Source: Candidatus Poribacteria bacterium (GTDB taxonomy: Bacteria; Poribacteria; WGA-4E; PCPOR2b). From it: 64,000 nt of DNA. A program made the position numbers and the translations under genes. Location of the stretch: positions 1,440,001 through 1,504,000 of the forward strand of contig OZ244042.1 of the NCBI GenBank assembly GCA_965215015.1, in the 5' to 3' direction. Under the pieces are notes generated by a model that did not search any database, was not told the DNA's origin, and was given only the letters and a program-made list of their open reading frames with translations. Of this stretch, positions 6,318 through 63,836 are shown piece after piece (positions within the stretch are counted from its first letter, which is position 1; each line of letters begins with the position of its first letter).

Positions 6318-6331
6318 GAACAGTGCCGGTT

Positions 6332-14063: not shown

Positions 14064-14393
14064 CGTTCTTTCCTAGCTTAAAACCGATGTTCGGTCAACT
14101 TTTGTAAGCCGCTAACGCCGGTTGACACTACGCGAATATACAAAAAACTCTCAACAGTATAATACGTTCAGCTAGAGAAAACCGTTTCAAAAATAGGTAT
14201 GTGGGACTTTACCCATTCCAAGATCTACCTTCAACTGCCGTAATCTCCTCCTGTGTTTAATCAATGGTTAAAAAAGAATCAACTGCAAAATCACCGGGCG
14301 ATAAATGTACAAATGGGGTTACAGACTTCTCCAACCTTCCAAGTATTGCAAATATCTATCGTTGAGGCAAAGCGGCCTCTATTTTGACAACAT

Positions 14394-15263: not shown

Positions 15264-15278
15264 TTCGTTGATCAGAGT

Positions 15279-16157: not shown

Positions 16158-16270
16158 GGAATCTTCTCCTAAGTCTCTAAATATTAAGTGAAATCTCGAT
16201 TGGGAACTTCAAGCCAGGGTTAGATAAACTCCGAAACGCTGTATTGGTCAGTAAACGGAAGCTGAAGCAC

Positions 16271-16897: not shown

Positions 16898-16976
16898 AAA
16901 GTCATGCTACCACCTAAACAAGGTAGCATACCTGTTGCAGGCAATGTCGAAAAACATCACGACCATCGAAACCAAG

Positions 16977-34400: not shown

Positions 34401-36815
34401 AGGTTCATCGTCATAAAAAGCGTCCTCAATTGAATCAAGTAATTGTCGTTGGTCTGGATATTTTTCTCTCAAATGACGAATTGCATGTCTAAATTTGGAT
34501 CCTGGGCTTTTAGGATTACGAATGATCGCCAGGGCTGGATCTACTGCTTGTTTTTTCATCGCTTCAACCGCGATGAGTCGAATCATGTCCTGATAGTGAG
34601 ACCACTGAATCCCAACTGCATATTTTGCCGCATCCTGTCGACTATCTGAGAAGATGATGGTCTTTCGTTCGGATTGTACTTGAACAGTTGCTTGTAAGGT
34701 TTGGGTGAGGATTTGGATTACTTTTTGCAAACCTGTTCTACTATTACGGAGTGGTGAACCTACCTGCTCTTTGCCATTGACAACAATCTTTTCCCTGGAT
34801 AAATCCCATACATCTCCACAGTATGGGCAATACTTAGGAATTTCTGAGCACCAATCTTCTGGTTGGTGAATCTTGTAAAAATAACCATTGGAGTTCGTCG
34901 TGGAATCCGGGATAAGTTTTCCATCGGATGGAGAAAACTGCGCGGAATGCCAACTTCTCTTGAGACCGTTTTGGCTCCAACCCCCACGGGGTTGATTAGG
35001 AGTTTTCTTCCTCGGCCAAAAGATAGCGTAAGTTTCGTAATTCCGATCTTTAACCCCCTTTTCAGGTAAACCCCTCAATTCTTGATAGTCACCACTGAGA
35101 TACCAACCTGGAGCCTCGTCCGAGATTAGCTGTTTATATCCACCAAAAAAGAGATCTCCGCACGTTTCGCAGGTTAACAATTCTAGCACTCGTGAACCAC
35201 ATTCATCACACAAAACACGTCGATTTGCGAACAATTTTCCAATGAAAATGTCGTTGTTTTCCCCTCGACAATTCGGATTGCTACATGCCCACAATCCCTC
35301 AAAGTTTTTGAAGAAGTAATGGACACGAAACGGTAATAGGGCCTGATCTTTTTTTATGTCCTTCTGTTGAATTGTGTAGCGAATAAGACCACGGATAGTA
35401 TCCTCAGAAAGTGGTGTTGGACTTACTCGGTTTGCGGCTTTCAGCATATCCCCGATCGTCGAGGCATTTAACTTTCCATTATTATTACAAAGTTGTACCA
35501 CAGCCGACTTGATGAGTTCCTTTGGAATTTTGTCCAACTGAGTGGCATCTCTATTTTGATCGAACGCTTCAAACTGTGCAGCGTGTTTGAGGGATTCCTG
35601 GAGCTCAGTACTTTGATCAGGGTGTTGTGGTGAACTAATGATTTTGAATTTTCTCCTTCGCGCAAAAAATTGACGGAGGTATTCGCTTCCTTCATCGCTT
35701 TCAAGTGAAGCACTTGATGCAATGATTCGCAGTTTTGGCGATTCAGGTTCAAGGCCAAGCCGATTAAACAGTGTCCGAAGAAGATAAGCAACCTCCGATC
35801 CTGCTGTTCCGCGGTAGGAGTGTAATTCATCAACAACAAGATGGAAAACACTGTCTTTTCTTTCTAGCCATGCTTTAGTTTTTTCAAAGATAGGCTGTTC
35901 TAGGTTGCGGATGAGCATAATATTCAGCATTGAGTAGTTTGTGATTAGGATGTCCGGCGGGTGATCCTGCATGTCCCACCGAGACCACATCTCAGCTGTG
36001 TCAACATCGGTTGAAGGAAAAAAATAACGCTTCTGCTCGGAATCGCTAACTTTTTCAGCTTGCCTATGTAACTTCTCTAGTTGTTTTTGAAATCTTTGGA
36101 GGTTTTCCAGCTTTTTTTCACCTGGGACCGGTGTCAAACCAGTATAGCGACCAAAGTAAAATCGATTGTTACCCCGATTTTCATGGAGCCATCTCCGTGC
36201 TGCCGGACTGTCACAAGCCCGGCGTAGACGCATGAGTTGATCTTCAACAAGTGCGTTGAGTGGATACAAAATTAACGCACGAAGGGCAGCAGGACGTTCT
36301 TCGTCTTGACGCTGTGGAATAGGCTTTTCTGTTTTACTCTCAAAATTTTGCCACCACGGATGATTTGAATTCCGATAGCCGTAGCTGTTCCATTTCCGTG
36401 ATTCTTCGACGAGATAGTTGAAGATTGGAAGTAAAAAACACTCTGTCTTTCCAGAACCTGTGCCAGTCGTGACAACGACATCCTCACCATCAATAACCGA
36501 TGCTTTAATTACCTTTGCTTGATGGTCATAGAGCAGGCGGTCTTTTGGTGCAAGTCCATCATCACCACCTCGCGCGAGAAAATCACCAAGTTCGTAAGAC
36601 AGTTGTAAATGGTTGCATAACTGCGACAGAGTTTTCCCGGAGGAGGGATAAGGAACAATTGGTTCAAAGCGTGGGTCTTGGAAAAGCAGCCCGTTTTCCC
36701 GCAATAGTTTGTTACGTTCCTCTTCGAGTTCCGTACTATTAAAACCCAAAATTGTTTGGATGTAGCGAATGTAAGAATCACAAAGCAGTTCATAAGTTTC
36801 AAATGGATCTGACAT
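31470..36815 (-). CDS. DExH helicase with C-terminal DUF1998, DruE-like (Druantia)
   Basis: [30 protein letters not shown], several Cxx[57 protein letters not shown]; TGATG coupling to the upstream gene. Confidence 0.88.
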
Positions 36816-37711
36816 CAAATAACCTCCCAATCTTGATAGAGTGATTTAGTCAATCGGTATGCAATACCAACTGGTACATCGGAGTAGCAAGCCCAATCAC
36901 CCCTCCATTTTGGTGGAAATCCTGAGCATAGGGTCGCGCACCGATCAACAATTAGCGGCACAAGCAAATTTCGATTGACACACCATGTCTGAGATTTTTT
37001 TTCGTAAAAAATCAGTCTAGTCTTTCTGACGAAGGTAGAAAGTAGAAGCCATTCCCCCCAGTCACGCGGGACTTTTCGTTGGTCGTAACCAGATTTTAAG
37101 ACGTAGACATCGGGACCGTATTGAGGGATTTCGTAAAGCTCATCATAATCTAAAGAATCGTTATCCTTTTCGTATTTCAGGTTATTGATATTGAACTTGT
37201 TCAGCGAATCGGAAAACGGTATTTCGACTTGCGGAAAATTGGCGCGCTTGGGGGACGGCAATACGCTCGATAACTTGGCAGAAAATGCTCGACTAATGTG
37301 AATGCCCCAATTTTCAATTTTGGTGAAAGAAGTTTCCGTCAGTCCGGTCAACACAATGGTCGTTGGGGCGTATTGCTCTAGAATCAAATGCGATTTTCCT
37401 CCCATTTTGGAAATATAACTTTTGATTTCTTTAAGAAAGTCGGGAGACCGACTTCCGACAAGTACATATCGATCTTCCACCGCCGCTTCAACCAAGACAG
37501 TAGGCGCAATTACAACCTTGTCCAAATTCATAGGATTGTAATCAAGGTGTCCAAGTCGTGCTAGTGATGTCAGGTAAGTAGAATCTTTCAAGTTGGATTC
37601 ACCTTCTGCAAGATTTTCAACTGCCTCTTTGAATTTTTCCCAACTCAGTTCACCGACATGTGACAAGTAATAAAGGAGTCTATCAAAGATATTTGTTTCC
37701 GTTTGGTTCAT
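36815..37711 (-). CDS. Druantia accessory-like protein (possibly DruD/DruH C-terminal-like)
   Basis: [34 protein letters not shown]; overlaps both neighbours. Confidence 0.6.
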
Positions 37712-50507: not shown

Positions 50508-51368
50508 ATGGAATATCGTGAACTTGGAAGGACAGGGATGCGGTTGAGCGTCATCGGGACGGGCGGCCTTCTAGCACACTATTGGGAGGGAGAATCGGGC
50601 CATCCGCCACCCGAAGAGAAGCGGCAAATCTATCTGCGGGCAGTCGAATCTGGGATAAACTTATTTGATATGGGCTACGGGGACGAGATTCATATTCCAG
50701 AAGAATTGAAGGGCAATACAGACGAGCGTTACTTCTCCCTGAAAGTCGGCGCACCCGCAGCAGCAGGTTTGGAAGGGATAATTGACAAACATCTTATGAA
50801 CCTACGTAGAGATGCGATTGACATCCTCCGGGTACACTATTATGCCTACATGAACGACATCCAACTGAGGAAGCGAATTACCGATCTCAAGCAGATGGGG
50901 AAGGTGCAATCGCTCTGTCTGATACGCCACTTTGAGGAGGACCAAAATGCCTATGTAGCGCGCGGTCCAGAAAAGGCCGCAGACGCAGACTTGGTTATCT
51001 ACAATTACGTCTGTCGTGGTCAGGCTCCGGGTATTCGAGCATCGTCCAAAGCTGGAAAGGGAGTCTTGGTAATGAAGGCACTCGGTGGGCAATACTTAAG
51101 CTGGAAACATAAAACTGGGACGGACTGGACCAAAGCGACGGAGGAAACTCTGGTGAAGCTTTCACCCCTCGGTGAGAATATGCGCAGCGAATTACCACTT
51201 GTCTACTCTTTTACCGCCGGTCCCTGGAGTGAGTTAGTTGAGTCTAAAGAGAAGATTTCGCCGACCGGGAAGGCATTATCATGGGTGCTTGAGAACCAAG
51301 GTGTGAGCAGTGCGCTCGTGGCGGTTGCCAGTGTCAAAGAACTTGAGGCTGTCTTGGAGGGTATATAG
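50508..51368 (+). CDS. Aldo/keto reductase family protein
   Basis: MEYRELGRTG, GINLFD..YG, NLRRDAIDI..H, GKV, MKALGG. Confidence 0.85.
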   Translation: MEYRELGRTGMRLSVIGTGGLLAHYWEGESGHPPPEEKRQIYLRAVESGINLFDMGYGDEIHIPEELKGNTDERYFSLKVGAPAAAGLEGIIDKHLMNLRRDAIDILRVHYYAYMNDIQLRKRITDLKQMGKVQSLCLIRHFEEDQNAYVARGPEKAADADLVIYNYVCRGQAPGIRASSKAGKGVLVMKALGGQYLSWKHKTGTDWTKATEETLVKLSPLGENMRSELPLVYSFTAGPWSELVESKEKISPTGKALSWVLENQGVSSALVAVASVKELEAVLEGI

Positions 51369-51577
51369 AAAGTCTCTAATAACCAATGGGGCGTTGATAC
51401 AATCCCCGGTCAAAGACTGAGAGTGAAAAGTGACAACAATCTGTTCATTGGTATATTAGTTGATTGGTTCATTCATGAACTAATGGACCAAGGGGTAGAA
51501 ACGTCATCCTCACCGATTGGCACCAAAAAATTAATACAAATTACGAGACTGCTACAAGATTGTTAAGCGAGGTTTTC

Positions 51578-52333
51578 ATGGATATACAACTGACATCGGT
51601 TCAAAAAGAAGAATATCAGCGCGATGGTTATACTATCGCCACAGGTGTGTTCGATCCGGATGAGTGCGATCGGTTTATTGAGTATATGATGGACCTACAT
51701 GCTGGGCGCAAGATCGTCGAGGGTTATCCCCCACGGGAGCCGAACGACTGGAGGCGGACACATAATCGCTCCCTTCACGAGCCTGTAGGGCTAGAGTGGA
51801 TGCTCGATGCTAGATTGTACCAACCGTTGCGGACGCTCCTCGGCGATGAGCCGGAGGCGGTACAGAGTATGTATTTCTATGTAGGTTCGGAACAACGCCG
51901 GCATCAGGATGCGTACCATCTACCGGGCTGTATGTCCGCATGGATTGCCCTTCAAGAGGTTGGCGCATGGAACGGGAGCATCCACGTCCAACTCGGTTCT
52001 CACAAAGGACCAATTATTGATAAGAGGGATTTTAGAACGGACGAAAACGGCAGCCGGGGACCTTGGTATGGCTGGCATCCCGAAGACGCATTCGATGCCC
52101 TGTTTGAACGTAACGGGCTTCCAGAAATCACTGTCGAAGCCTCAAAGGGAGACGTGGTATTCTTCCACGGTAGGCTCATCCATCGCGGCGGTCCCATTTT
52201 GGAGCCGGGGGCATTTCGCCACAGTTTTGCGTGTCACTACATCCCCCAGTCTTTTAACCCCTGGCCCTATGAAGAGCTGCCGAGGTTGCGGATCTCATTC
52301 GATAGGGTCTGCCGATTTACGCCGACCCATTGA
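51578..52333 (+). CDS. PhyH family dioxygenase
   Basis: YQRDGY, QSMYF, HQD, SAWIAL, NGS..GSHK, GDVVFFHG.LIHRG. Confidence 0.9.
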   Translation: MDIQLTSVQKEEYQRDGYTIATGVFDPDECDRFIEYMMDLHAGRKIVEGYPPREPNDWRRTHNRSLHEPVGLEWMLDARLYQPLRTLLGDEPEAVQSMYFYVGSEQRRHQDAYHLPGCMSAWIALQEVGAWNGSIHVQLGSHKGPIIDKRDFRTDENGSRGPWYGWHPEDAFDALFERNGLPEITVEASKGDVVFFHGRLIHRGGPILEPGAFRHSFACHYIPQSFNPWPYEELPRLRISFDRVCRFTPTH

Positions 52334-52454
52334 GCACGTCGGGAACGGGATTTCCCTCCCACGGTGAGAGAGGCAGTCCTGCCTCGTCAAGTCCACACCT
52401 TACAAAGTCTCTAGAGACCGAATTTTGCCAAAAACTCGGTTTCTCTGCCCTTTA

Positions 52455-54101
52455 CTACTTCTTCATCGTCGTAAGTACAAGCTGTGCCTCGCTCTGTTGG
52501 ACGTCAGGCCGTTTCTGTTTCTTTTTCATACCGCGAAAATCACGCGCTGCTTGTCCGGCATCTTTGGCACTCAGGAAGTGATACCCCTCGCTTTCATACG
52601 TCTGGATCGATGGAAACTCCTCAGTCCGTGCAGCAACAATCAAGAGCTCCGCACCAAACGGCGGGGCACACTCAAACTCCTCCGGAATTTCAACAACGCG
52701 GTTCACCTTCGACTGGTCAATGTAGTGGGTGTCGTAGAGAAGCGTACGCCTGCCATCGGCAAGGATATAGAGCAACCGGAGGTAGGCTTCTCGATTGACG
52801 CGAACGAAAACCTTCATTGTCTCGCCCTCGGTGTAAAGCAGGTGCTCACTTCCCTTGTCTGTCCACATCTCGACCTGTAAGCCGCTAACGAACTCGCCTT
52901 CGGCGAAAGCGTTCTGCTCAATGAGGGCTTGCTTATAATTTTGCGGTTTGAAGTTGAGGCCTTTCATCCCCCGGTCAAACTTCACAACAACTCCCGCCCT
53001 AACTTCACCTGTTTCCACATCCCGCAATGGCGCCCGAATCGTGATTTCATCGCTGTTTTCCCAATAGGTGCCCGAAAGGAGCAGTGTCGCCCCCGTATCT
53101 TTTGCAAAATCGCGCCTGTGCTGGACTGAACGAGGACGAAAGTTGCCGCGTGAACGGTGCGTCTGATTGACAGTCTTCCACTTGGCTAGCTGCCCAAGTT
53201 GCGCCTCAAGCGCGGCGAGGAGTTGACGGGAAAAACGACTGGCCATCTGGGTATCTTGGTAGGTGAACGGTGCCAACAAGACTTTGCCCTCCGGTTGTTC
53301 AACCTGCTTTGAGAGTTGAAGCACGACAGCGCGGGCAACGCCATCAACGGAAGTGAGCGATTCTGATACGAGTTGCTCAACGCGATTGATGACCTCTGTA
53401 TGCGACAGGATCGGTGCGACATCGGGTTTGCCAGAAAGCTTCTTCGTGGCAAACCTCAACTCATCGAAGGCGACATCGCTCGGACTGCTGTCATGTTTTG
53501 TCACCAACAAAATAATCTTGGCCTCTTTCAATGCCTCGTAAAGTGGATAGGTGCTCAGGTATTTCTCCACTGCTATATCTATTTTTGAAGCTTTTTCTGC
53601 CGCTTCAGCATCGGCAAGGATTCGCCTTATTTCTTCATGCAGTTCTGACACCTGTTTGGTGTAGATATGTTTGAGTTTAGCGCGGCGGACGTAGGCGAGA
53701 ACGTATGTGGTTGGATTGCGTCCGGAATCAATGTAGGCTTCCGTTTCAAGCCCTAACAGTTTTAGTGCTGTCTCACTCTGGGTGACTCCGCTATACTGCT
53801 GGGATAGCATCCCTTCCATTTCTGATTCGGAGGTGCGAATGACACTCCTGACCTTTGTGACGATGTTGCGGGATACATCCGCTCGTGCGTTGTCCGCAGC
53901 AATTTGGCGAGGTTCCGCCCCGTCACCCCAAGCACTCCCGAAGCCAATGAGGTAAATGTGAACAGGCCGCTCTTCAGAACGCCCATAGTTCTTGACCCAA
54001 TCAGGTTTTGCGGCGTAGCCAGTTATTGTGAATAGAATTAAGAAACAAACAAGCGGTTTGCACATAATTAGCGATATGTTGTTTAAGTGCATCGTAATCA
54101 A
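52455..54101 (-). CDS. Exported protein: LPP20-like N-terminus, FlgO/CsgG-like middle region, C-terminal DUF4384-like domain
   Basis: Signal peptide then KPDWV; A..NARADVSRNI; LLSGTYW..RDVETGEV; WTDKG..YTEGE..AYLRLLY..PPFGAE. Confidence 0.7.
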   Translation of the reverse strand: MITMHLNNISLIMCKPLVCFLILFTITGYAAKPDWVKNYGRSEERPVHIYLIGFGSAWGDGAEPRQIAADNARADVSRNIVTKVRSVIRTSESEMEGMLSQQYSGVTQSETALKLLGLETEAYIDSGRNPTTYVLAYVRRAKLKHIYTKQVSELHEEIRRILADAEAAEKASKIDIAVEKYLSTYPLYEALKEAKIILLVTKHDSSPSDVAFDELRFATKKLSGKPDVAPILSHTEVINRVEQLVSESLTSVDGVARAVVLQLSKQVEQPEGKVLLAPFTYQDTQMASRFSRQLLAALEAQLGQLAKWKTVNQTHRSRGNFRPRSVQHRRDFAKDTGATLLLSGTYWENSDEITIRAPLRDVETGEVRAGVVVKFDRGMKGLNFKPQNYKQALIEQNAFAEGEFVSGLQVEMWTDKGSEHLLYTEGETMKVFVRVNREAYLRLLYILADGRRTLLYDTHYIDQSKVNRVVEIPEEFECAPPFGAELLIVAARTEEFPSIQTYESEGYHFLSAKDAGQAARDFRGMKKKQKRPDVQQSEAQLVLTTMKK

Positions 54102-54480
54102 TGGACAGGGGGCCCGGGGACCGGATTTCTGATAGGCGAAGGGGTCAGAGGCATTCAGCTATTTATAGATAGTGGTACGTGAAACGGAGAACCGTCGGCA
54201 AGCCTCGGCTTTACTCCCTCCTGCTTCGATGAAACCAAGGACGCGTTTCCGTAAATCTGTTGAATATCTCATAATACTTGAAGTTTAACAGATTTCTAAT
54301 ACAATGTCCACTTACTTTCTATACTTCACCATAAATAAACGTTGAGATTTCAAGTAGAGATATGTTTTGTACCTACCCAACGAGAGTAACACAAGTGCTA
54401 ATGGAGTCCAACACTCTATCTTACCGGGGCAACCTCTCTTGATGTAGTCGCACAATTCGTTGGGCTAGTTATTGCACTAT

Positions 54481-56166
54481 TTATTTTATAATGGTAACAA
54501 AGGTAATTGTCTGTTGCTTTCTATTATTAGCACCATCCTTGACGTCAATTTCAATCTTGTAGGTTCTTGAGTTGACAAGTTCCTGTCCCGGAACCACAGT
54601 CAGCGTTGCTGTTTGACCCAACACGTTTGCAATCCAATTAAGGTCCGTTCCCACCTCATTGGTCAGCTTTATGCTTCCAATGATTGGTTCGTCGAAATCA
54701 AATCTGAAACCGCTAGCATTGATTGGTCCAATATTGACCCTTGTGTTTCCATCTGACACCGTTCCACTTACAATTGATGGCCCCGTCGTATCCGGGACAG
54801 TAATGGTAACAAGCTGTGAAAAAAGGCCGCCTGAACTCGCTCTGACAGTCGTTCTACCATTACTCCGGGCGGTGACAAGTCCGGTTGGACTGATAGCTGC
54901 TACAGACGGATTACCGATCACCGCATCTGTGATGAGGTAGTTGTTGGCATCGCGCACAGCGGCACTCAGCTGCAACGTCTGGCCCGCGACGATCGGAAAT
55001 AGGTTGACTGGGCTGATTTCGATTGTGGTCGGTAACTGTACCACGGTTATGGAAGCTGTTGAGGATTCGGCACCAGATGTCGCTTTGATATAAACTGCCC
55101 CGTTACCCCGGGCGGTAACGAGTCCCCGAGGACCCACACTAACTACACTGGGATTGCTGCTTGACCAACGCACAATCGCGCCTGGTATGGGTTGGTTTTT
55201 CCCGTCCTTTATTGTAGCATTTAACTGAATAGTGTCTCCAAGTGCTATCAACTTCGCCGCCGCGGGGGTGATGTTGACAGTAGTTGATGCCTGCTCCACC
55301 GTTATCGCCACGGTGGTTGACACCCCCCCAGATGTCGCTCTGATAGTAGCTGTCCCGTTACCCCGGGCGGTAACGAGTCCCCGAGGACCCACACTAACTA
55401 CACTGGGATTGCTGCTCGACCAACTCACAATCGCGCCTGGTATGGGTTGGTTTTTCCCGTCCTTTATTGTAGCATTTAACTGAATAGTGTCTCCAAGTGC
55501 TGTCAGCGTTGCAGCGGCGGGGAGAATGCTGATTATGGCAGGCGATCCGATAATGACCAGTTGGAGGGTATCATTGCTACCCTCCGCTGCTGTCCACGCG
55601 ATGTTGAGAGTAGTTGCGCCCGGAGCTAGACCGGACGGTCCCCAAATAGCAGTGTGCCCTTGCACCACAGCATGCCTACCATTTATCGTTACAACGCCCG
55701 GTGGCGCACTAAAATTGAGAGTTAGCAATCCACTACTGAGCATCTGGGCACCCGCCTTCGGCTCACTGCTGAGAAGTTCTGCTACTTTTTCTACGTTCAT
55801 CGCAAGCTGATTCCCACCGCTTGAAATATTAACCGTGCCAGAACCCACGAATAAACGGTTCCCTGTCTTAAAGACTTCTACCTTGACTTCCCTCCGGTTG
55901 CCAACCGGAACATCGTTAACCGTTACTTCATAAGTTTGTTTGTGCCCTTCGACAATTGCAAGATGTTGTTCCTTTACAATCTGATTTGGAATGTCAGCTG
56001 CTGTTATTATTATTCTGAGGGTATAATCCCCAGCTGCCATTGGACTCAGAAAGGCGAGAGGAATATCTATTGAAGAAAAATCGTCTACATCGTCGCCGCT
56101 GCAGCTTAAGAAAAATAGAGTGAACCCCATAGCAAACCCTATCATCGAAACCAAACTTTTTGACAT
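54481..56166 (-). CDS. Lipoprotein with bacterial Ig-like group 2 (Big_2) repeats
   Basis: Lipobox FFLSC; repeats I.PAAA.L.ALGDTIQLNAT..WSSSNPSVVSV..GLVTARGNG. Confidence 0.85.
   Translation of the reverse strand: MSKSLVSMIGFAMGFTLFFLSCSGDDVDDFSSIDIPLAFLSPMAAGDYTLRIIITAADIPNQIVKEQHLAIVEGHKQTYEVTVNDVPVGNRREVKVEVFKTGNRLFVGSGTVNISSGGNQLAMNVEKVAELLSSEPKAGAQMLSSGLLTLNFSAPPGVVTINGRHAVVQGHTAIWGPSGLAPGATTLNIAWTAAEGSNDTLQLVIIGSPAIISILPAAATLTALGDTIQLNATIKDGKNQPIPGAIVSWSSSNPSVVSVGPRGLVTARGNGTATIRATSGGVSTTVAITVEQASTTVNITPAAAKLIALGDTIQLNATIKDGKNQPIPGAIVRWSSSNPSVVSVGPRGLVTARGNGAVYIKATSGAESSTASITVVQLPTTIEISPVNLFPIVAGQTLQLSAAVRDANNYLITDAVIGNPSVAAISPTGLVTARSNGRTTVRASSGGLFSQLVTITVPDTTGPSIVSGTVSDGNTRVNIGPINASGFRFDFDEPIIGSIKLTNEVGTDLNWIANVLGQTATLTVVPGQELVNSRTYKIEIDVKDGANNRKQQTITFVTIIK
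55099..55501. repeat. Intragenic duplication, 255-bp period (Big_2 domains)
   Basis: About 150 bp nearly identical starting at 55099 and 55354. Confidence 0.85.
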
Positions 56167-56263
56167 TGTCTATCCTCTTCTCCTTTGTTGTTTACCAAAT
56201 GTTTATCCGCGAGATGGATCTCCCACCTGCCTAAGAGCTTGTTACTGGACAATTCACCACACG

Positions 56264-56328
56264 GTTTGTAGTCGCGCAATCGATTGCATATCTTGAAAAA
56301 GCTGGCGAGATATCAACAGACTACAAAC
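56264..56328. repeat. REP-like inverted repeat
   Basis: GTTTGTAGTC ... GACTACAAAC; related half copy TGTAGTCGCACAATT near 54443. Confidence 0.5.
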
Positions 56329-56461
56329 GGGCGAACAATTGTCCTACTATGAACCTCGACTGGCGCAGTTGCAAAATTCGTTGTGAGTATTAACCGGCGC
56401 GGATTTGACAAACTTTCGACACACAATACCATCCCTGTTGGGGAAAGAAGGTTACCGTTTT

Positions 56462-57781
56462 TTACGGAATACTTATTGAAATTTTTAAGTTCCCGGTCTG
56501 TAGTTGACTTGCCTGGTCGCTTCCACCATCGCTATCGTTTCCATCATCGCTATCGTTTCCATCGTTGCTACGATTAGAGAGTACGAACGCGGCGACACCA
56601 GCTCCAGATGCTGCAACAAACCCTCCGATAATAAAAGGCCATTTTGATCTGCCGCTTCGGATCGCTGGCAACCGTTGGAGCATAGGGTTGACTTCCACCT
56701 CTCGGCCCGCTTTGATACTGATTTCCTGTGTATAATCCTCGTAATCCTCAAGGGTTAATTTCAACATGTGTGTTCCAACCATCACATCTTGAATCCGCAC
56801 CGGTGTGCGTTGTGCTTGCAAAACATCAGCAAGCATTACTTGCGCCCCAGTGGGCTGGGAGTTAACAAAAATCGAGCCGGTTTGCCCCGGTGGCACTGGA
56901 CCCCCAGGAAGCACAAAAATGAAACTCCCTTTGTTCAGTTCCGGACCCATAATTTTACCATGCTGTGGATGTTGCGCTCCATTGTTGTATTCAGGCACTT
57001 TCCTCGCTAGGTGTGCTCCCAACTCCTCTCCTGTTATGTAACCATCAGGGAATGGATCTTTTGCCTTGCCTTGGATGAGGTCTAAGAACTCCTGCTTAAA
57101 AACACTATAGTTGGGGAGCTGTTCATTAGCACGGCCCGCAGTGATGAACTGCCGTACCGGTTGTTTGACACGAGCTGAGATGTGTTCGGAAGTTACCCCG
57201 GCTCGTAAGCTGAGAATCATGCCGGAAAAGCAGCTGTCAAACACAAGCAACATATGCCGTGATTGTACCAACCTCACTTGTTTAATCAGCAATGTCAGAT
57301 CCATAGCTTTGAGTTTGAAGTTGATTACGTCTTTTTCTGGCAACGGCGCGTCAATCATTACCAGATAGCCAAGGTCTTCGCCGGTTGCCATCTTCTGGGT
57401 GTAGCCATGCCCTGCATAATAAAACAGGAGGCGGTTGTCTGGATCTCCACCGGCGTTGACGATGAAATCAGCGAACACCTTTTCAAATTCCTGCTTCGTC
57501 AAATCTTTTTTTAACGTTACGGAGAAGCCGTGCACCTCAAGGACATCTGCGACTTCATCCACGTCCTGAAGCACGCCTGAGAGCTGGGACCAACCCTCGG
57601 TGTAGCTTCCGTTGCCAACGACGAGAGCGTAGGAGTCTTTATACAGTTCAATTTCTTCGCCCTGCTGCGTGCGGACTGAGATGGTTTTTATATCGCGAAT
57701 TGCCTGTGCAAACAACTCTCCTGCGGCGACCAAATATAAACAAAGCGGCGTAACAAGTAGGGAAATCAGGCGTTTTGTCAT
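56462..57781 (-). CDS. Exported caspase-like (peptidase C14) protein with PEGA domain and C-terminal hydrophobic helix
   Basis: AAGGAG RBS, signal peptide, SYALVVGN, FYYAGHG, FDSCFSG, VNSQPTGAQV PEGA domain, WPFIIGGFVAASGAGVAAFVL. Confidence 0.88.
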   Translation of the reverse strand: MTKRLISLLVTPLCLYLVAAGELFAQAIRDIKTISVRTQQGEEIELYKDSYALVVGNGSYTEGWSQLSGVLQDVDEVADVLEVHGFSVTLKKDLTKQEFEKVFADFIVNAGGDPDNRLLFYYAGHGYTQKMATGEDLGYLVMIDAPLPEKDVINFKLKAMDLTLLIKQVRLVQSRHMLLVFDSCFSGMILSLRAGVTSEHISARVKQPVRQFITAGRANEQLPNYSVFKQEFLDLIQGKAKDPFPDGYITGEELGAHLARKVPEYNNGAQHPQHGKIMGPELNKGSFIFVLPGGPVPPGQTGSIFVNSQPTGAQVMLADVLQAQRTPVRIQDVMVGTHMLKLTLEDYEDYTQEISIKAGREVEVNPMLQRLPAIRSGRSKWPFIIGGFVAASGAGVAAFVLSNRSNDGNDSDDGNDSDGGSDQASQLQTGNLKISISIP

Positions 57782-57925
57782 AATAATCTCCTTTGAAGGC
57801 TGCGAACGCGCAGTCAAGGTTCATTCTTTCCACAGTTTACCGTTCCGTTAGGATTTCAAGCGTTTTACCATCGTAAAAATTGCCTTTCATTTCTACTCAC
57901 TGTAAAGGCATAAAAAGGTAAAAAT

Positions 57926-60775
57926 TTAAGGGGGTGCAGTCCTCGCACAACGAAACCTGAAGTAGGGATTTGTGAATGTTGGAGCATTTCCGCGGCGATC
58001 AGCGACGCGCAGGGACCTCGAATTACCGACCCACGAGCCACCGCGCAACACTCTATTATTTTTAATATTTGTGAAATTACTTGTAATATCTGTAATACTA
58101 TTCACCCTTGCAATCGGATTGCGACGCGGTGAGATTTTATAGTAATTCCCTTGATATTCGTCTAAGCACCACTCCCACACATTGCCCGCTATATCGTAGA
58201 GCCCATAAGGGTTAGGGGCATAGCTCCCCACAGCAGTCGTGCCTCCAAGATTACTATTGTAGTTTGCCTTGTTTGCATCTATCGAATCCCCCTCCCACGG
58301 ATACTTTTTACCCGACAATCCACCCCGTGCTGCCCTTTCCCACTCTGCCTCCGTTGGCAAATGCTTGCCCGCCCACTCCGCATACGCCATGGCACCGTAC
58401 CAACTCACATACACAACGGGGTGATTTCCTCTACCGTAACTGTTTCCAGTCCAGTGTTTTAGATAATTCCCATCGTGGTACCTTCTAGGTATCTGGTCTT
58501 TCCCCCACCACGGGTTGGCATCAACGAACTCCTTATATTGTACATTGGTCACCTCGTATATGTCTATATAGAACGCATCGACATAGACGGTATGCACCGG
58601 CTTTTCGTCAAAATTACCATCGTTACTTCCCATCTGAAAGTCGCCTGCGGGAATAAAGACCATGCCCTCAAGCGAGTCACTACTTTGGCGTATCTTTGTC
58701 TCCTCCAAGCGGACCTCCCACAGCGTTTGTTGGCCGCCTCTCAGCATTAACCTTTCCACGTGGCTCTTGTAACCCGAAAGCTCTAAGCGTATCTCAATCT
58801 GTTTTTCACGCGCCCTCCCGGTGTCAATCTCATAGTCATGTAACGGCGTTTGTCCAATCGAGTCACCCTCACCCTCAATGTAGACAAGTGCCCCGCTCGG
58901 TATGCTAGTAACCGTCAACGTTCCGGTTCGAGAGATGATTTTCTCCAAGGGGATATCCCGCAGCGTTTGTTGGCCGCCTCTCAGCACTAACCTTTCCACG
59001 TGGCTCTTGTAACCCGAAAGCTCTAAGCGTATCTCAATCTGTTTTTCACGCGCCCTCCCGGTGTCAATCTCATAGTCATGTAACGGCGTTTGTCCAATCG
59101 AGTCACCCTCACCCTCAATGTAGACAGACGCACCGCTCGGTGTGCTAGTAACCGTCAACGTTCCGGTTCGAGAGATGATTTTCTCCAAGGGGATATCCCG
59201 CAGCGTTTGTTGGCCGCCTCTCAGCACTAACTTTTCCACGTGGCTCTTGTAACCCGAAAGCTCTAAGCGTATCTCAATCTGTTTTTCACGCGCCCTCCCG
59301 GTGTCAATCTCATAGTCATGTAACGGCGTTTGTCCAATCGAGTCACCCTCACCCTCAATGTAGACAGACGCATCGCTCGGTGTGCTAGTAACCGTCAACG
59401 TTCCAGTTCGAGAGATGATTTTCTCCAAGCGGACATCCCACGGCGTTTGTTGTCCACTTCTCAACGTTAATTGTGTTATGGCGCGCTTGTAGCCTGAAAG
59501 TTCTAAGACGACCGTCACCCGTTTTTCGTGCCGTACACCTATATCCATCTTATGGCTCGTCAGCGGGGACCTCCCAATCAAATCATTGTCAACGTAAATA
59601 TCAGCACCGCTCGGTGTGCTAGTAACCGTCAACGTTCCGGTTCGAGAGATGATTTTCTCCAAGCGGACATCCCACGGCGTTTGTTGTCCACTTCTCAACG
59701 TTAATTGTGTTACGGCGCGCTTGTAGCCTGAAAGTTCTAAGACGACCGTCACCCGTTTTTCGTGCCGTACACCTATATCCATCTTATAGCTCGTCAGGGG
59801 GGACTTCCCAATCCAAGCATTGTCAACGTAAATATCAGCACCGCTCGGCGTACTAGTAACCATTAACAGCGGAGGCGTGGGAGGGAGGGGCTCCGCTGGC
59901 AGCACAAACACAAAATCACCCTTGTCCAACTTCGGATTGCGAATTTTGCCATACTGCGGGTGTTGCGTGGGGTTGTAGACCGGCACCTGATTTTTCAGAT
60001 AAAACCCTAACTCCTCACCCGTTATGTACCCATCACGAAACGGCTCATCTGCACGTCCCTCAATTAGATCTAAGAACGCTTGTTTAAAATCGCTGTGGTC
60101 TGGCACTACTTCCCCCGCCCGCCCCGCTGTAATAAACTGCCGTACTGGATACTTAACGTTGTCCGAAATGCTTTCAGAAGGACGACGGAGGCGATCCCGC
60201 ACATTGAGAATTGTCCCGGAGAAGCAGCTATCAAATATAAACAGCACATGCCGCGCCAAGATTTTCTCTGCCTGCGTCACAAGCGATTCCATAGGGATAC
60301 TTTCAAGCTCAAAATCGATCTTATTTACCTCCGGTGTAGGCGCATCTACCATGACAAGGTATCCGAAGGCTTCACCGGTTGCACCTTTGCGAGTGTAGCC
60401 GTGGCCAGCGTAGTAAAACAGGAGCCGATTGTTAGCGGCTTCACCAGACTTCAAGACAAACTCCGCAAAAGCACGGTCAAATTTAGCCTTCGTCAAATCC
60501 TTTTTTAATGTAACGTTAAAGCCATGTTTTTTGAGGGCGGTTTCAACTTCCTTCACATCCTTGAGGGCACCCTCCAGCGGATCCCAGCCCTTTGTGTAGG
60601 TTCCGTTGCCAACAACGAGGGCATAGGAATCTTTATACAGTTGAATCTCGCCAGCCGTTGTGTGGACGGTGATAGGTTTCATGCCACGGCCTGTCTGCGA
60701 AAATAGATCTCCAATGATGATTAGACAAAAAAAGGAGACCATCGCAACGCATTGGAAAATCGGAGGTTTTGTCAT
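57926..60775 (-). CDS. Exported caspase-like protein with five PEGA domains and C-terminal FGE-sulfatase (SUMF1) domain
   Basis: Signal peptide, YAGHG, DSCFSG, five VTS.PS repeats, IPAGDFQMGS, YEVTN, LPTEAEWERAARGG, GNVWEW, RGGSW. Confidence 0.92.
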   Translation of the reverse strand: MTKPPIFQCVAMVSFFCLIIIGDLFSQTGRGMKPITVHTTAGEIQLYKDSYALVVGNGTYTKGWDPLEGALKDVKEVETALKKHGFNVTLKKDLTKAKFDRAFAEFVLKSGEAANNRLLFYYAGHGYTRKGATGEAFGYLVMVDAPTPEVNKIDFELESIPMESLVTQAEKILARHVLFIFDSCFSGTILNVRDRLRRPSESISDNVKYPVRQFITAGRAGEVVPDHSDFKQAFLDLIEGRADEPFRDGYITGEELGFYLKNQVPVYNPTQHPQYGKIRNPKLDKGDFVFVLPAEPLPPTPPLLMVTSTPSGADIYVDNAWIGKSPLTSYKMDIGVRHEKRVTVVLELSGYKRAVTQLTLRSGQQTPWDVRLEKIISRTGTLTVTSTPSGADIYVDNDLIGRSPLTSHKMDIGVRHEKRVTVVLELSGYKRAITQLTLRSGQQTPWDVRLEKIISRTGTLTVTSTPSDASVYIEGEGDSIGQTPLHDYEIDTGRAREKQIEIRLELSGYKSHVEKLVLRGGQQTLRDIPLEKIISRTGTLTVTSTPSGASVYIEGEGDSIGQTPLHDYEIDTGRAREKQIEIRLELSGYKSHVERLVLRGGQQTLRDIPLEKIISRTGTLTVTSIPSGALVYIEGEGDSIGQTPLHDYEIDTGRAREKQIEIRLELSGYKSHVERLMLRGGQQTLWEVRLEETKIRQSSDSLEGMVFIPAGDFQMGSNDGNFDEKPVHTVYVDAFYIDIYEVTNVQYKEFVDANPWWGKDQIPRRYHDGNYLKHWTGNSYGRGNHPVVYVSWYGAMAYAEWAGKHLPTEAEWERAARGGLSGKKYPWEGDSIDANKANYNSNLGGTTAVGSYAPNPYGLYDIAGNVWEWCLDEYQGNYYKISPRRNPIARVNSITDITSNFTNIKNNRVLRGGSWVGNSRSLRVADRRGNAPTFTNPYFRFRCARTAPP
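58703..59865. repeat. Tandem PEGA-coding repeats: 3 x 240 bp and 2 x 234 bp
   Basis: Identical 60-mers at 58801, 59041 and 59281; second unit type recurs at 59421 and 59655. Confidence 0.92.
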
Positions 60776-60838
60776 GGAAGGGGCCTTACTATAAAAATAT
60801 AAAACCTGAATTTGGACTGAAGGGGTATTCCCTGGTTC

Positions 60839-61624
60839 TTAGGTAAGTGATGTGCGGAGAAGGACATGACAGACGCGTTTCTGCACATCATACCATCGTT
60901 CAACCGTCTCTATTCCCTTTAAGGTGACGTCAATATGAGTGCGGGTGATTATCCTCAGGGATCCTCTATGCAATTTTTTTAGAATAGAAACGTTTGATTC
61001 AATAGTGAGTGCAAGATTGACTCGGGCTCGGTGTTCTGCTCTCGCCCACGCTTTGTCGGGATAAGCCCCCATATGGCTTTGTCCGTGCGCGTAAGTATAC
61101 CCCGGCTGACTTGGAAGATTTTCAAGCCAGTTAGGAGGGGAGGGACTAGCGGTTGTGACGTGGTTGGGCAGGTTGGGTGTCGTGCCTAACCCCACAAATA
61201 TCATCGTTAACGCTTCGCCATGATAGGTTGCCAAGTGTTCGTGTTTCTCTTGGACGTGTTCTTTTACACCGGCATCTAGTTCTTCCCGAAATCTTGGTAT
61301 TAGCTGCCCATTTATCGAAATCTGCTTTCCATGTATGCGGACACGGGTAGATTTCGCTACGCTCTCAATTCCATCATCAATAGCCTTCTTTAAGGCTTTT
61401 TCAGGATATCGCCCGGTCAATGCGTACCCTACAGCGGTCGGAAACGGGAGATCAAGTAGTGGCTGCCAAAACCAATATGGATACGCGATGTTTGCGTTCT
61501 CTGTGCGGGATGGGGAGACGGAAGGACCGGAAGCCACCACCGACGTGTCCCAATCAACTTTTGAGGATTGGCAACTCATGAGCAGAAATATAAAAAAAAC
61601 AGACAAATATCTGTATTTTCCCAT
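60839..61624 (-). CDS. LPP20-like lipoprotein
   Basis: Lipobox LLMSC; YPYWF and PPNWL modules, AWARAEHRARVNLA. Confidence 0.65.
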   Translation of the reverse strand: MGKYRYLSVFFIFLLMSCQSSKVDWDTSVVASGPSVSPSRTENANIAYPYWFWQPLLDLPFPTAVGYALTGRYPEKALKKAIDDGIESVAKSTRVRIHGKQISINGQLIPRFREELDAGVKEHVQEKHEHLATYHGEALTMIFVGLGTTPNLPNHVTTASPSPPNWLENLPSQPGYTYAHGQSHMGAYPDKAWARAEHRARVNLALTIESNVSILKKLHRGSLRIITRTHIDVTLKGIETVERWYDVQKRVCHVLLRTSLT

Positions 61625-61865
61625 AAATCCATGTTCTTTATCACGAATTACGCGAGTTGGTATGCACAGACTCTTTTGAGCCCGAGTATTCATAAGGAGA
61701 GTGCCTCGCCTAATAATATAGGGAGGAGGTCACTGTCCCGCTGTTTGAAGTTAGGAAAATTCTTCTTACTTCATCGCGGCACGGTGATTAAGGTGAGCTC
61801 CGGTACAACAGGGTTATCCCCATTGTACCGGAGTAACGGTGGCGTACCTCGTTTACAGGCAGTTC

Positions 61866-62516
61866 TTATTGAGTCTGCGACGTAGCTGGATCCCCATCCT
61901 GACCTATTGGACTGGGAATAGAGGGTTGCCCTGACTGTTCTTCCCGCTCGCGGAGGTCCTTAATCTTTTCTGCCAGTTCGTTGTGCCCCTTCCAGGCCTG
62001 GAACTCTTGATACAAGGCTGCCTCATTGCTAATCTGTTTAACAAGCGGATCCTCAATATTGCTCTTTATAGGCATTCCCAACATAAGTTGCACGTCGTAT
62101 AATCCACTTTTTTCCGTAGCTTTTGTTGTGATAACGGCAGTATCTTGTAATGTCTCATCGGCAAGACTCTCGGAGACTTGACTAAAAACGGCATTAATTC
62201 TTGCGTCGGCCTCTCCGCCGAGCTGTTGCTGAAAATCCTTGGAAAGCGCAGTAACCTGTGCCTTCGCTTTAAGTGCCATGGCCGCCCTTGCTCTTTGCAT
62301 TGCCATTGACCTTGCCATGTTCAGGTTTCGCGAATTACCGAGGCCGATGGTGTAGAGAAAGCCGTCAGTGCCATCGGGGTGGGGTTCGAGTATGTGAACC
62401 TCGCGCGCTCCTGGGTCGATAACTGATTGGGCGACCTCTTTACCACCGCAACCTACCAAGACCAACCCCGCGCCAACGCAGAGGAGAAGTGTTATATTTA
62501 AAATCTGTTTCATCAT
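61866..62516 (-). CDS. LPP20-like lipoprotein
   Basis: AAGGAG RBS, lipobox VLVGC, YTIGLGNSR..ARSMAMQRARAAMA. Confidence 0.75.
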   Translation of the reverse strand: MMKQILNITLLLCVGAGLVLVGCGGKEVAQSVIDPGAREVHILEPHPDGTDGFLYTIGLGNSRNLNMARSMAMQRARAAMALKAKAQVTALSKDFQQQLGGEADARINAVFSQVSESLADETLQDTAVITTKATEKSGLYDVQLMLGMPIKSNIEDPLVKQISNEAALYQEFQAWKGHNELAEKIKDLREREEQSGQPSIPSPIGQDGDPATSQTQ

Positions 62517-62679
62517 TTTGAAACTCCTTTTTCAACTTGAAGGTTGGCACGGATGCCTTATGCACCCGTGTGAGTTTCAGCCGCAAAGGCTGAAGATTAA
62601 CAGTCAGGCGATCTAACTGACATCTGTTATTGCCCCGCGATGGAACTTGCTTAAATAAGTTGACCTCAACTTACTCTAA

Positions 62680-63109
62680 AGAATCAGGATTCTCAAGATG
62701 GAAGGATTTTCGGGATAGCGAATGGCAATGGATAGAGTCAATCCTGTGAATCCTAAAATCCGGTAAAACCAGATTCAGACAAATGTCGCGATGATTTTGG
62801 AGGCTGAGGTGTAACTTGTCAGAATCAGGATCTTCAAGATGGAAGGATTTTCAGGATAGTGAATGGCAATGGATAGAGTCAATCCTGTGAATCCTAAAAT
62901 CCGGTAAAACCAGATTCAGACAAATGTCGCGATGATTTTGGAGGCTGAGGTGTAACTTGTCAGAATCAGGATTCTCAAGATGGAAGGATTTTCAGGATAG
63001 TGAATGGCAATGGATAGAGTCAATCCTGTGAATCCTAAAATCCAGTCAATCCCGATTCAGACAGAATGCGGCGATGATTTTGGAGGAGGGTGTGTAACTT
63101 GTCAGAATC
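62680..63109. repeat. Intergenic tandem repeat, 3 x ~141 bp, each unit an imperfect palindrome
   Basis: Units start at 62680, 62821 and 62962 (AGAATCAGGAT..GATTCAGACA..GTGTAACTTGTC). Confidence 0.92.
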
Positions 63110-63207
63110 TACTTTCCGGAGGCAACCTTCTTCAGATAGGCCTTTGTCTCTGTAGGCTTTTTCGCAATAAGTCGTTACATACCTATTTAACGCGCAGAAG
63201 AATCCGG

Positions 63208-63248
63208 GTGGAAGGATGGGCGACTCACTTCGTCACCCATTCTTCCAC
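63208..63248. repeat. Hairpin downstream of lipoprotein gene
   Basis: GTGGAAGGATGGGCGAC-TCACTTC-GTCACCCATTCTTCCAC. Confidence 0.6.
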
Positions 63249-63302
63249 TACTGTAGAGATACTGTTCGTTGAGGAGATGCTAACCCCTCCTGCTCGCTGC
63301 GT

Positions 63303-63836
63303 TTACCGCTCGCGAAGTTCTAGAACCTTTTTTGCTAAGTCGTTATGTCCTTTCCACGCTTGGAACTCTTGATATAAAGCTTCATCTTGACCGATTTCCT
63401 TAACAAGTACATCTTCGATATTATCCTTTATGGACATTCCCAACATCATGTGTACGCTGTACAGCCCATTTTTCTCCGTCACCTTCGTTTTGATAATGCT
63501 AGATTTTATTAACCGTTGATCGGCGAGGGCCTCGGAAACTCGAGTAAAAGCGGCGTTGATTTGTCCGGTAGCTCCTGCGCCGAGTTGTTGCTGAAAGTCC
63601 TTGGACAGCGCGGTGACATGCGACTGAGCCACAAGTGCCATGGATGCCCTTGTTCTTTGCGTTGCCATTGCCTTCGCTAAGCTTAAATCGCGCGATTCAC
63701 CTATGCCAACAGCGTAGAGCAATCCATCTTTGCCATCAGGAAAAGGCGTAAGTGTATCACTTTTACCGCAGCCGACGAAAACCAGCCCCGCGCCGATACA
63801 GAGACAAAATATGAGAGTTAAAATGGATTTCAACAT
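63303..63836 (-). CDS. LPP20-like lipoprotein, paralog of 61866-62516
   Basis: Lipobox VFVGC; shares VTALSKDFQQQLG and ALYQEFQAWKGHN with the paralog. Confidence 0.8.
   Translation of the reverse strand: MLKSILTLIFCLCIGAGLVFVGCGKSDTLTPFPDGKDGLLYAVGIGESRDLSLAKAMATQRTRASMALVAQSHVTALSKDFQQQLGAGATGQINAAFTRVSEALADQRLIKSSIIKTKVTEKNGLYSVHMMLGMSIKDNIEDVLVKEIGQDEALYQEFQAWKGHNDLAKKVLELRER

Follow-up and report, generated by a model that had tools for sequence, protein, structure and literature searches.

What two exported caspase-like proteases do among a set of lipoproteins in a bacterial cell envelope, and whether their genes form a unit at all, are the questions raised by a locus in a 64,000-nucleotide stretch of Candidatus Poribacteria DNA. 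This stretch (hereafter, the window) covers positions 1,440,001-1,504,000 of a genome that consists of a single contig of 5.94 Mb and is 98% complete. Seven consecutive co-directional open reading frames (ORFs), g1 to g7, occupy its minus strand from 52455 to 63887 (Table 1). The ORF list, Pfam, and further profile comparisons confirmed the content given by the original prediction, i.e., seven minus-strand genes for three LPP20-like lipoproteins (g5, g6, and g7), a caspase-PEGA fusion with a domain of the formylglycine-generating enzyme (FGE) family (g4), a caspase-PEGA protein with a hydrophobic tail (g3), a Big_2 lipoprotein (g2), and an LPP20/FlgO-like/DUF4384 protein (g1). Our analysis identifies this cluster as an accessory, patchily distributed cell-envelope module of exported proteins, and across the clusters examined it is the caspases that vary, on a constant background of lipoproteins.

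The same gene neighbourhood recurs elsewhere. Four sister-species loci (71-75% identity to g3) hold an Lpp20 gene, a caspase-PEGA-FGE gene, a caspase-PEGA-tail gene, a Big_2 gene, and a g1-like gene between the same flanks, with one Lpp20 gene each and no g5. Across 176 Poribacteria genomes, g3-like matches were found in 75 (E ≤ 1e-10) and g1-like matches in 56 (E ≤ 1e-5). A caspase match lay within 10 kb of at least 37 of the 71 g1-like loci, in 34 genomes, and a g1-like match lay within 10 kb of 55 of the 123 caspase matches. The former count is a lower bound, because two loci scored as caspase-less (L032 and L033) have a divergent caspase gene next door that the count missed. Inspection of 24 Poribacteria loci revealed a caspase gene near the g1-like gene in 21, which is not an unbiased rate, as 15 loci were chosen because both matches were known and 5 because none was known; kinship inflates all of these Poribacteria counts.

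Two cluster types could be distinguished. Type A consists of Lpp20, in some cases a g5-like gene, between one and four signal-C14-PEGA-(NPCBM)-FGE genes in tandem, and a g1-like gene. Type B consists of an Ig-like lipoprotein, a signal-WD40 propeller-Ig-C14 protein (~870 aa), a g1-like gene, and an exported M10 metalloprotease-TPR protein; the latter was Pfam-checked in L022 and L023 and, adjoining type A clusters, in L015 and L016 as well. A locus from a G+C-rich family (L026) combines g1-like, Lpp20, and g5-like genes with four caspase genes. Moreover, a metagenome scan with a g1 alignment yielded 79 loci (23-63% identity), whose ORFs were scanned with seven home-made profiles; over all loci, the neighbouring genes were judged by these profiles and by Pfam on 86 chosen ORFs, and our view of family size rests on this one metagenome scan and two Atlas look-ups. 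A caspase gene is present in 16 of the 34 metagenome loci of at least 8 kb (G+C 0.33-0.64) and is the immediate neighbour of the g1-like gene in 12 of those 16, and a g6-like, g5-like, and g1-like trio recurs in L035, L036, L052, L054, L057, L082, and L104. The co-occurrence of caspase and g1-like genes, on which the original prediction hinged, is thus seen both across the Poribacteria phylum and on unrelated metagenome contigs, and Lpp20-type lipoproteins recur with the pair in both. The g1-like lipoprotein seems often to be joined by caspases, as an addition that varies. Poribacteria are best known as sponge symbionts; a sponge-specific role is nevertheless unlikely as the general role of the pairing, because the pairing also occurs on metagenome contigs spanning that range of G+C.

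These counts bear on the simplest alternative, namely, that there is no system and that unrelated exported genes are chance neighbours in an accessory region. The patchy distribution within the genus (g1-like matches in 7 of 19 other species) would suit such an explanation, as would the long intergenic gaps of 295, 379, and 786 nt and the lack of an operon signal: terminator-like sites were not above shuffle level (15 found versus 13.1 expected), and promoter-like sites, at about twice the shuffles, were placed uninformatively, so that operon structure could not be drawn from the scan. In contrast, the adjacency recurs across Poribacteria families and on metagenome contigs of different composition, and cyanobacterial orthocaspases are described, in the accessible text of one survey, as fused to FGE-sulfatase and DUF4384 among other domains (PMC7475262). 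The strongest argument is that two different caspase architectures, C14-PEGA-FGE and WD40-Ig-C14, adjoin the same g1-like partner. Chance neighbourhood is therefore disfavoured, and we regard it as very improbable.

Both proteases belong to the C14 family, Peptidase_C14 (PF00656, cut-off 21.4 bits) scoring 62.4 in g3 and 65 in g4, and they are each other's sole paralogues in the genome at E ≤ 1e-5 (49% identity). The catalytic dyad, His in YAGHG and Cys in DSC, is present in both, and none of the 41 aligned domains departs from this His or Cys. The invariant columns of the alignment are H97, G98, D154, and C156, and thus include the Asp that precedes the catalytic Cys by two residues; three sequences that the motif pattern missed carry D-C-C or D-V-C. 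We take this Asp to be linked to the specificity pocket of MALT1. By family and by their intact dyad, both proteins are C14 enzymes with predicted peptidase activity.

MALT1 was also the sole family that a phmmer search of the PDB returned; 10 distinct chain sequences were matched (E 8.7e-7 at best), and the alignment takes in the YYAGHGY stretch. The AlphaFold2 (AF2) model of g3 reached a mean predicted local distance difference score (pLDDT) of 71.4, being mostly 80-97 over residues ~61-190, patchy (44-88) over residues 191-300, and <50 from residue 386, and it displays the caspase-haemoglobinase fold of the C14 family. Its top Foldseek match was the caspase-Ig3 unit of MALT1 (~400 columns, E 9.4e-13), followed by fungal and trypanosome metacaspases, Geobacter GSU0716, and animal caspases, the matches ranging from E 1e-12 to 1e-7. 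Since the MALT1 matches cover both the caspase domain and the next beta-sandwich, the modelled caspase-PEGA unit looks like the caspase-Ig3 unit of MALT1. The two differ in that g3 and g4 are bacterial, begin with a signal-like segment, and have PEGA in place of Ig3 as the sandwich; identity is ~15-20%, and the activity and specificity of g3 and g4 are predicted only. We rejected filing them as paracaspases, because the death and N-terminal Ig domains that define paracaspases are absent (Pfam) and the caspase domain directly follows the signal-like segment. NCBIfam gave matches only below the cut-off (caspase_w_EACC1, 58.5 and 51.3 versus 140 bits), and no family was assigned.

The C-terminal head of g4 carries the name of an enzyme, as FGE-sulfatase (PF03781) matched at 206.8 bits and the solved FGEs 6s07 and 2q17 at E 6e-37. 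In FGEs, a C-x4-C motif after GGS[FY] is the catalytic, copper-binding cysteine pair. Aligned to 6s07 and 2q17, g4 has Gly at the first active-site Cys and a 3-residue deletion across the second, and the C-x4-C pair was found in none of the 28 related C-termini in the examined loci. Because both catalytic cysteines are absent, the head is predicted to be a C-type-lectin-fold binding domain and not an FGE enzyme, and we rejected the idea of a true FGE serving the many sulfatases of Poribacteria. Automated annotation of such caspase-FGE proteins as 'SUMF1/EgtB/PvdO family nonheme iron enzyme' or 'formylglycine-generating enzyme' (e.g., in Atlas clusters near L077:3493-5403) is for the same reason probably misleading for the members examined here and calls for correction. 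PDB matches of the head also include PorK/GldK and the Treponema variable protein TvpA (2y3c). PorK/GldK and GldJ of the type IX secretion system (T9SS) share a non-catalytic periplasmic FGE fold with g4; the NCBIfam GldK score of g4 (128.9 bits) is far below the cut-off of 350, no other T9SS gene occurs in the cluster, and, the likeness being confined to the FGE fold, a T9SS component was dropped as a candidate.

The original prediction had further envisaged a lectin-fold receptor on a variable stalk. The receptor part is supported by the missing cysteine pair and by homology to a demonstrable variable region in a relative. At locus L027 (genome G007, another Poribacteria family), a bAvd gene and a reverse transcriptase (RT) gene lie between two caspase-FGE genes, and a 134-nt template repeat matches the 3' ends of both caspase-FGE genes; 21 of 22 mismatches fall at template adenines, the signature of a diversity-generating retroelement (DGR), so we assign L027 as a DGR. 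The C-terminus of g4 aligns with this variable region and shares its GGSW ... GFRC frame. Within the genus of the window, two caspase-PEGA-FGE paralogues at L019 (genome G056) are identical over the 44 codons preceding the variable stretch and then differ almost only inside the GGSW ... GFRC frame, with a bAvd gene alongside. The DGR link in the relative suggests that the head serves for ligand recognition and that its surface is under pressure to diversify.

Some details of these two loci may be recorded here. The complete DGR at L027 (G007:C52) spans 9077-15784 and comprises the template repeat (11335-11468), bAvd (11526-11876), the RT (11949-13046), and an RNase H-like gene (13090-13572); its targets are a caspase-FGE and a caspase-PEGA-FGE gene, whose variable regions are identical to each other, and two further RTs of DGR-like size are encoded on other contigs of G007. 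At L019 (G056:C1), the orphan bAvd gene (11834-12181) directly follows a caspase-PEGA-FGE gene; no template repeat lies beside it, and G056 has no DGR-type RT, its sole RT being a 583-aa frame elsewhere, so that the bAvd gene may belong to a DGR that has decayed or acts in trans. The two caspase genes of L019 are separated by ORFs of 167 aa (9170-9673, without a Pfam match) and 115 aa.

The variability of the stalk likewise found support, as the number of PEGA units ranges from 1 to 5. Pfam placed PEGA in 5 stretches of g4, as compared with 2 in the same-genus orthologues at L010 and L011 and 1 in most homologues from other families. Tandem Repeats Finder (TRF) detected a period of 240 nt (4.2 copies, 89% matches, 58703-59697) and one of 234 nt (2.1 copies, 96%, 59370-59861) in g4, and these near-identical units therefore point to recent PEGA duplication. 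Four contig sets aligned over 56400-61700 gave only near-identical contigs that break in the PEGA repeats, with no insertion or deletion and no usable joint.

The three LPP20-like lipoproteins were upheld by profile comparison and by orthologues above the Pfam cut-off, although the Pfam scores of the proteins themselves fell below it (LPP20, PF02169: g6 18.8 and g7 19.7 bits versus 25.9; the weak LPP20 match of g1 scored 18.5). A profile from 16 g6-like proteins matches the solved Helicobacter pylori Lpp20 (5ok8) over its whole length (positions 1-157, E 3.6e-6), and a g6 orthologue (L026:5682-6344) scores 28 bits. The g7 gene is a paralogue of g6 (57% identity) that has no second-copy counterpart in the four single-copy sister-species loci. 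The g5 protein itself has no Pfam match, and its family profile has no PDB match; its alignment reveals two tandem halves with a repeated P-x-W ... A-E-x-x-A-R pattern, the C-terminal half matches the g6-family profile (hhalign probability 95%, E 3.4e-8), and an orthologue (L016:6193-6963) reaches 31.2 bits for LPP20.

The label LPP20/FlgO-like/DUF4384 given to g1 proved correct, by its Pfam match to DUF4384 (PF14326, 35.8 bits versus a cut-off of 27) and by structure matches of its AF2 model (pLDDT 83.4, predicted template modelling score 0.82); DUF4384 is single copy in the genome. Of all the cluster members, g1 is the one that accompanies the caspases most consistently. VIA-align, applied to the Foldseek list, matched residues ~31-151 to Lpp20 (5ok8, Z 9.6), after which a helical linker follows, and residues ~250-378 to LpoB (4q6l, Z 12.3, rmsd 2.8, 122 aligned), with further matches of this middle domain to PelC (Z 8.2), GNA1162 (8.0), FlgT (7.6), and TolB-N (7.3). 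Residues ~405-548 (DUF4384) form a beta-sandwich like RbmA and macroglobulin-type domains (Z ~8.5), a likeness of common arrangement only. Pfam listed neither FlgO nor CsgG for g1 itself at E ≤ 0.01; a short homologue (L027:7797-8900) matches CsgG at 26 bits (cut-off 20.8), and FlgO or CsgG is found in 11-56% of the members of related Atlas clusters. Atlas neighbours of g1 are unnamed clusters with DUF4384, CsgG, FlgO, and LPP20 in Bacteroidota, Myxococcota, Verrucomicrobiota, Spirochaetota, and Nitrospinota, which serve as leads only. Judged by these models, the folds of the lipoproteins appear to be those of outer-membrane-tethered periplasmic scaffolds or adaptors.

Several features are shared with the H. 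pylori Lpp20 operon (Lpp20/HP1456, HP1454, and HP1457) and with FlgP/FlgO/FlgT rings: Lpp20-type genes stand side by side, the g6-like profile and the N-terminal domain of g1 match Lpp20, and HP1454 and FlgT are among the fold matches. Unlike those proteins, g1 fuses Lpp20-like and LpoB/FlgO-like domains to DUF4384; no flagellar context was seen at the loci examined, where none was specifically searched for. We know of no protease associated with the Lpp20 operon or with the FlgP/FlgO/FlgT ring systems.

The same folds could be read as pointing to the biogenesis of an envelope structure, i.e., an Lpp20/FlgP-FlgO-like ring or sheet under the outer membrane, with the caspases as maturation proteases or as transpeptidases like other clan-CD enzymes. 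The likeness of the g1 domains to Lpp20, LpoB, PelC (a dodecameric ring), FlgT, and TolB-N fits this explanation, and g6-like, g5-like, and g1-like genes form their triad on contigs where no caspase was seen (L057 and L082), g1-like genes also standing alone. However, variable lectin or WD40 heads, tandem paralogues, and DGR mutagenesis would be surprising in a protease dedicated to maturation, and in these clusters it is the caspases that vary and the lipoproteins that stay constant. We consider biogenesis quite improbable.

Export was judged by our own hydropathy and lipobox heuristics, which bore out a signal-like or lipobox N-terminus for all seven proteins. Four of them (g2, g5, g6, and g7) have lipobox-like motifs, and g1, g3, and g4 have an N-terminal hydrophobic segment without lipobox. 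By the same heuristics, 34 of 41 caspase homologues carry an export signal; the other 7 include 2 truncated at the end of their contig, 2 whose start is doubtful, and 2 borderline cases. Likewise, 26 of the 29 caspases in the 16 caspase-bearing metagenome loci start signal-like (hydropathy threshold 2.0). The second, C-terminal hydrophobic segment of g3, at residues 394-414 and followed by an acidic repeat tail, predicts that this protease is membrane-tied. The tail of g3, rich in Asp/Gly/Asn/Ser and on the cytoplasmic side, is encoded by an 18-nt tandem repeat (window positions 56517-56563, 2.6 copies). A PEP-CTERM-type sorting signal was dropped as an explanation of this tail, NCBIfam giving no such match.

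Binding modules attached to exported proteases also suggest another use, in which secreted or surface proteases held by FGE/lectin-fold, NPCBM, and Big_2 modules digest sponge-matrix glycoproteins for nutrition or niche remodelling, the lipoproteins serving only as anchors. Homologues of g4 carry one to three FGE domains, two of them with an inserted NPCBM module, and a free NPCBM protein is encoded nearby; g2 is a Big_2 lipoprotein, exported M10 metalloprotease-TPR proteins are neighbours in four Pfam-checked loci, and caspase domains are reported among the eukaryote-like domains enriched in Poribacteria, as far as the accessible text of that study goes (PMC7081726). Against matrix digestion, the cluster encodes no route across the outer membrane, DGR diversification and WD40 heads suit recognition better than bulk digestion, and the pairing also turns up outside sponge symbionts, on contigs whose G+C differs widely. 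In addition, C14 proteases are typically narrow-specificity processing enzymes. The Big_2 protein itself appears to be genus-specific and outside the conserved core: g2 has Big_2 in 3 stretches (two of the units being near-duplicates) plus Big_5 by Pfam, and orthologues occur at the same-genus loci L010-L013, with none in the other Poribacteria loci inspected, among the maps of L014-L033. On balance, we think matrix digestion unlikely.

The reading that we prefer is one of recognition, in which binding by the head activates a MALT1-like protease on or near a lipoprotein scaffold and the ligands recognised are changeable and non-self; we hold it tentatively, at somewhat short of an even chance. 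The lipoproteins would form an outer-membrane-tethered periplasmic scaffold that positions or restrains the proteases. A ligand bound by the lectin-fold head would bring the protease domains together and switch them on, activation by proximity or dimerisation being the mode of MALT1 and caspases, and the active protease would then cut envelope proteins after a basic residue. In other clusters, a WD40 propeller takes the place of the lectin-fold head. The targets would be non-self molecules of phage, competitor, or host origin rather than housekeeping ones, as suggested by three features, namely, paralogues in tandem that differ in their heads, a stalk that varies, and DGR hypermutation of the head in a relative. 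A complex prediction for the g4 caspase domain with mature g1 (31-548) scored 0.00 against a mark of 0.32 and, being without controls, is not evidence either way.

Several observations weigh against recognition of this kind. The cluster encodes no NTPase, toxin, or other obvious downstream effector, and the matches from PADLOC 2.0 were limited to a generic 'caspase' model (~51 bits) and a single repeat hit below threshold, with none for the five other proteins. The localisation of the cluster proteins rests on heuristics, and basic-residue specificity is predicted from the invariant Asp and the MALT1 pocket. The window genome, a single contig and 98% complete, yielded no RVT_1 match and no template repeat to the 3' end of g4, whose only other match in the genome is a 76%-identical paralogue; the g4 head is therefore not being diversified now, and is best described as a predicted domain of the kind that DGRs diversify, currently static in this genome. 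Moreover, 18 of the 34 long metagenome loci have no caspase gene on the contig, nor do the Poribacteria loci L029 and L030, and L031 has an FGE-only gene alongside g1-like but no caspase gene. The 18 include the L039-L049 subfamily, which resembles L030 and whose surrounding genes look unrelated: none of the seven profiles matched near the g1-like gene, save for one FGE-type ORF in L039, the scan there being with profiles and not with Pfam. These g1-like genes without a nearby caspase indicate that the lipoprotein has a function of its own, to which caspases are possibly optional.

Bacterial caspase homologues are numerous and, to our knowledge, the few characterised so far act in the cytoplasm. 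Parts of the present arrangement have nevertheless been described. The accessible text of a 2012 catalogue counts 33 metacaspase-FGE fusions, considers that their N-terminal helices may be signal peptides, and suggests extracellular action (PMC3501461); the domain pair is the same as in g4 and the possible signal peptides agree, but the FGE part is treated there as a sulfatase-modifying enzyme, whereas its catalytic cysteines are absent here, and that text holds no mention of PEGA. Atlas clusters with caspase and FGE are found in Planctomycetota, Bacteroidota, and Pseudomonadota. DGR variable proteins with orthocaspase N-termini are reported from cyanobacteria (PMC7517822), the FGE-type lectin-fold domain is listed as a DGR-linked component of conflict systems in a study that calls PEGA peptidoglycan-associating (PMC7159879), and a further study proposes 'antigen sensors' of lectin fold that are diversified by DGRs and paired with caspase- or trypsin-type effectors, a periplasmic location being predicted for some (PMC10907252), all three as judged by the accessible parts of these papers. 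The g4 head shares its fold with the variable proteins of this literature, including TvpA of Treponema denticola, and shares their sensor-plus-caspase logic (PMC7517822, PMC10907252, PMC7159879). In contrast to the DGR conflict systems, this cluster has no MoxR, vWA, or STAND NTPase, and the sensor and protease are one exported polypeptide coupled to lipoproteins.

The claim that the system is undescribed thus stands in part: caspase-FGE fusions with probable signal peptides were catalogued in 2012 (PMC3501461) and a sensor joined to a caspase was proposed in the accessible parts of PMC7159879 and PMC10907252, but the linkage to lipoproteins was not found described. No description of a caspase / Lpp20-FlgO-DUF4384 linkage was found in the literature, supplements apart. 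By title and abstract, no gene-neighbourhood study of DUF4384 was apparent, and, judged by title, none of the listed papers that hold both LPP20 and caspase looked relevant, as they deal with host caspases or Legionella gene names; among the listed papers that combine several names of the cluster's components, none mentions LPP20. New here, relative to the known fusions and sensors, are export, the direct fusion of sensor and protease, the lack of an NTPase, and the conserved lipoprotein partners. Exported caspases, noted since 2012, thereby gain a parts list of MALT1-like protease, stalk, non-enzymatic lectin-fold head (as predicted), and Lpp20-type partners, and the recurrence of this list across lineages makes the class testable. 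For sponge symbionts, it provides a concrete candidate behind the reported caspase-domain enrichment. If the head is diversified for recognition, the idea of an antigen sensor plus protease would extend from the cytoplasm to the envelope. A bolder version, which seems doubtful to us, is a widespread, extracytoplasmic, NTPase-free, immune-like surveillance in which lectin-fold sensors, DGR-hypermutable in some lineages and fused to a MALT1-like paracaspase, would dock on an FlgP/FlgO-type lipoprotein ring or sheet under the outer membrane, with an invader protein or glycan triggering local proteolysis; were it true, no earlier caspase-based system of defence or recognition would be known to act outside the cytoplasm.

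Table 1. Features of the exported caspase-lipoprotein cluster (window positions)
Feature	Position	Strand	Description
g1	52455-54101	-	548 aa; exported three-domain protein (Lpp20-like, LpoB/FlgO/CsgG-type, DUF4384)
g2	54481-56166	-	561 aa; Big_2/Big_5 lipoprotein, lipobox-like FLSC
g3	56462-57817	-	451 aa; signal-like N-terminus, C14 caspase-like, one PEGA, hydrophobic segment 394-414, acidic repeat tail
g4	57926-60775	-	949 aa; signal-like N-terminus, C14 caspase-like, five PEGA, predicted non-catalytic FGE/C-type-lectin-fold head
g4 caspase domain	59876-60691	-	residues 29-300; His in YAGHG, Cys in DSC
g4 PEGA stalk	58691-59887	-	residues ~297-695; recent tandem duplication (TRF)
g4 FGE-fold head	57941-58672	-	residues 702-945; last ~35 residues match DGR variable region of relatives
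g5	60839-61693	-	284 aa; lipoprotein, lipobox-like LMSC, likely start 61624; two tandem Lpp20-like halves
g6	61866-62516	-	216 aa; Lpp20-family lipoprotein, lipobox LVGC
g7	63303-63887	-	194 aa; Lpp20-family lipoprotein, lipobox FVGC; likely start 63836
141-nt repeat, three tandem copies	62680-63109	.	between g7 and g6; genome-wide repeat family

The end of the cluster at 63836 in the original prediction corresponds to an internal ATG of g7, whose ORF runs to 63887. The suggestion that the cluster might run past the window did not hold: it ends at g7, beyond which come genes for a DUF1611 protein and a YhgA/Rpn-like transposase as well as an inserted island of defence type. In the region beyond (L009, C1:1,503,001-1,520,000), the DUF1611 and YhgA/Rpn-type genes are duplicated, at 1277-3640 and 12322-14636, and the block between the duplicated pair (3679-11202) encodes a ThsB-type TIR protein, an N6/N4 DNA methylase, and a PLD-HEAT protein. 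The C-terminus of a 768-aa CARDB protein (14675-16981) is present a second time as a 201-aa fragment. The arrangement resembles the insertion of a defence island accompanied by duplication of its target.

The 141-nt unit between g7 and g6 recurs elsewhere in the genome in tandem arrays of up to ~14 copies (86-97% identity), with sites on C1 at ~1,699,439-1,701,443; 1,753,215-1,754,183; 51,223-51,470; 4,809,404-4,809,802; and 3,333,036-3,333,145. It has no Rfam match and is probably outside the protein module. The sole Rfam match in a scan of 52000-64000 was sub-threshold (aceE-II, 23.8 versus 100 bits) and was treated as chance.

Beside some caspase clusters lies an AAA_15/AAA_21 ATPase gene (L016:4000-5361, L015:17696-19081, and L022:15148-16617), which may be an unrelated defence gene in the same variable region; the L016 copy, the one scanned with PADLOC, has AriA (PARIS) as its best match (114.5 bits). 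Elsewhere in the window, the minus strand carries two very long ORFs, at 23929-30864 (2311 aa) and 31470-36830 (1786 aa).

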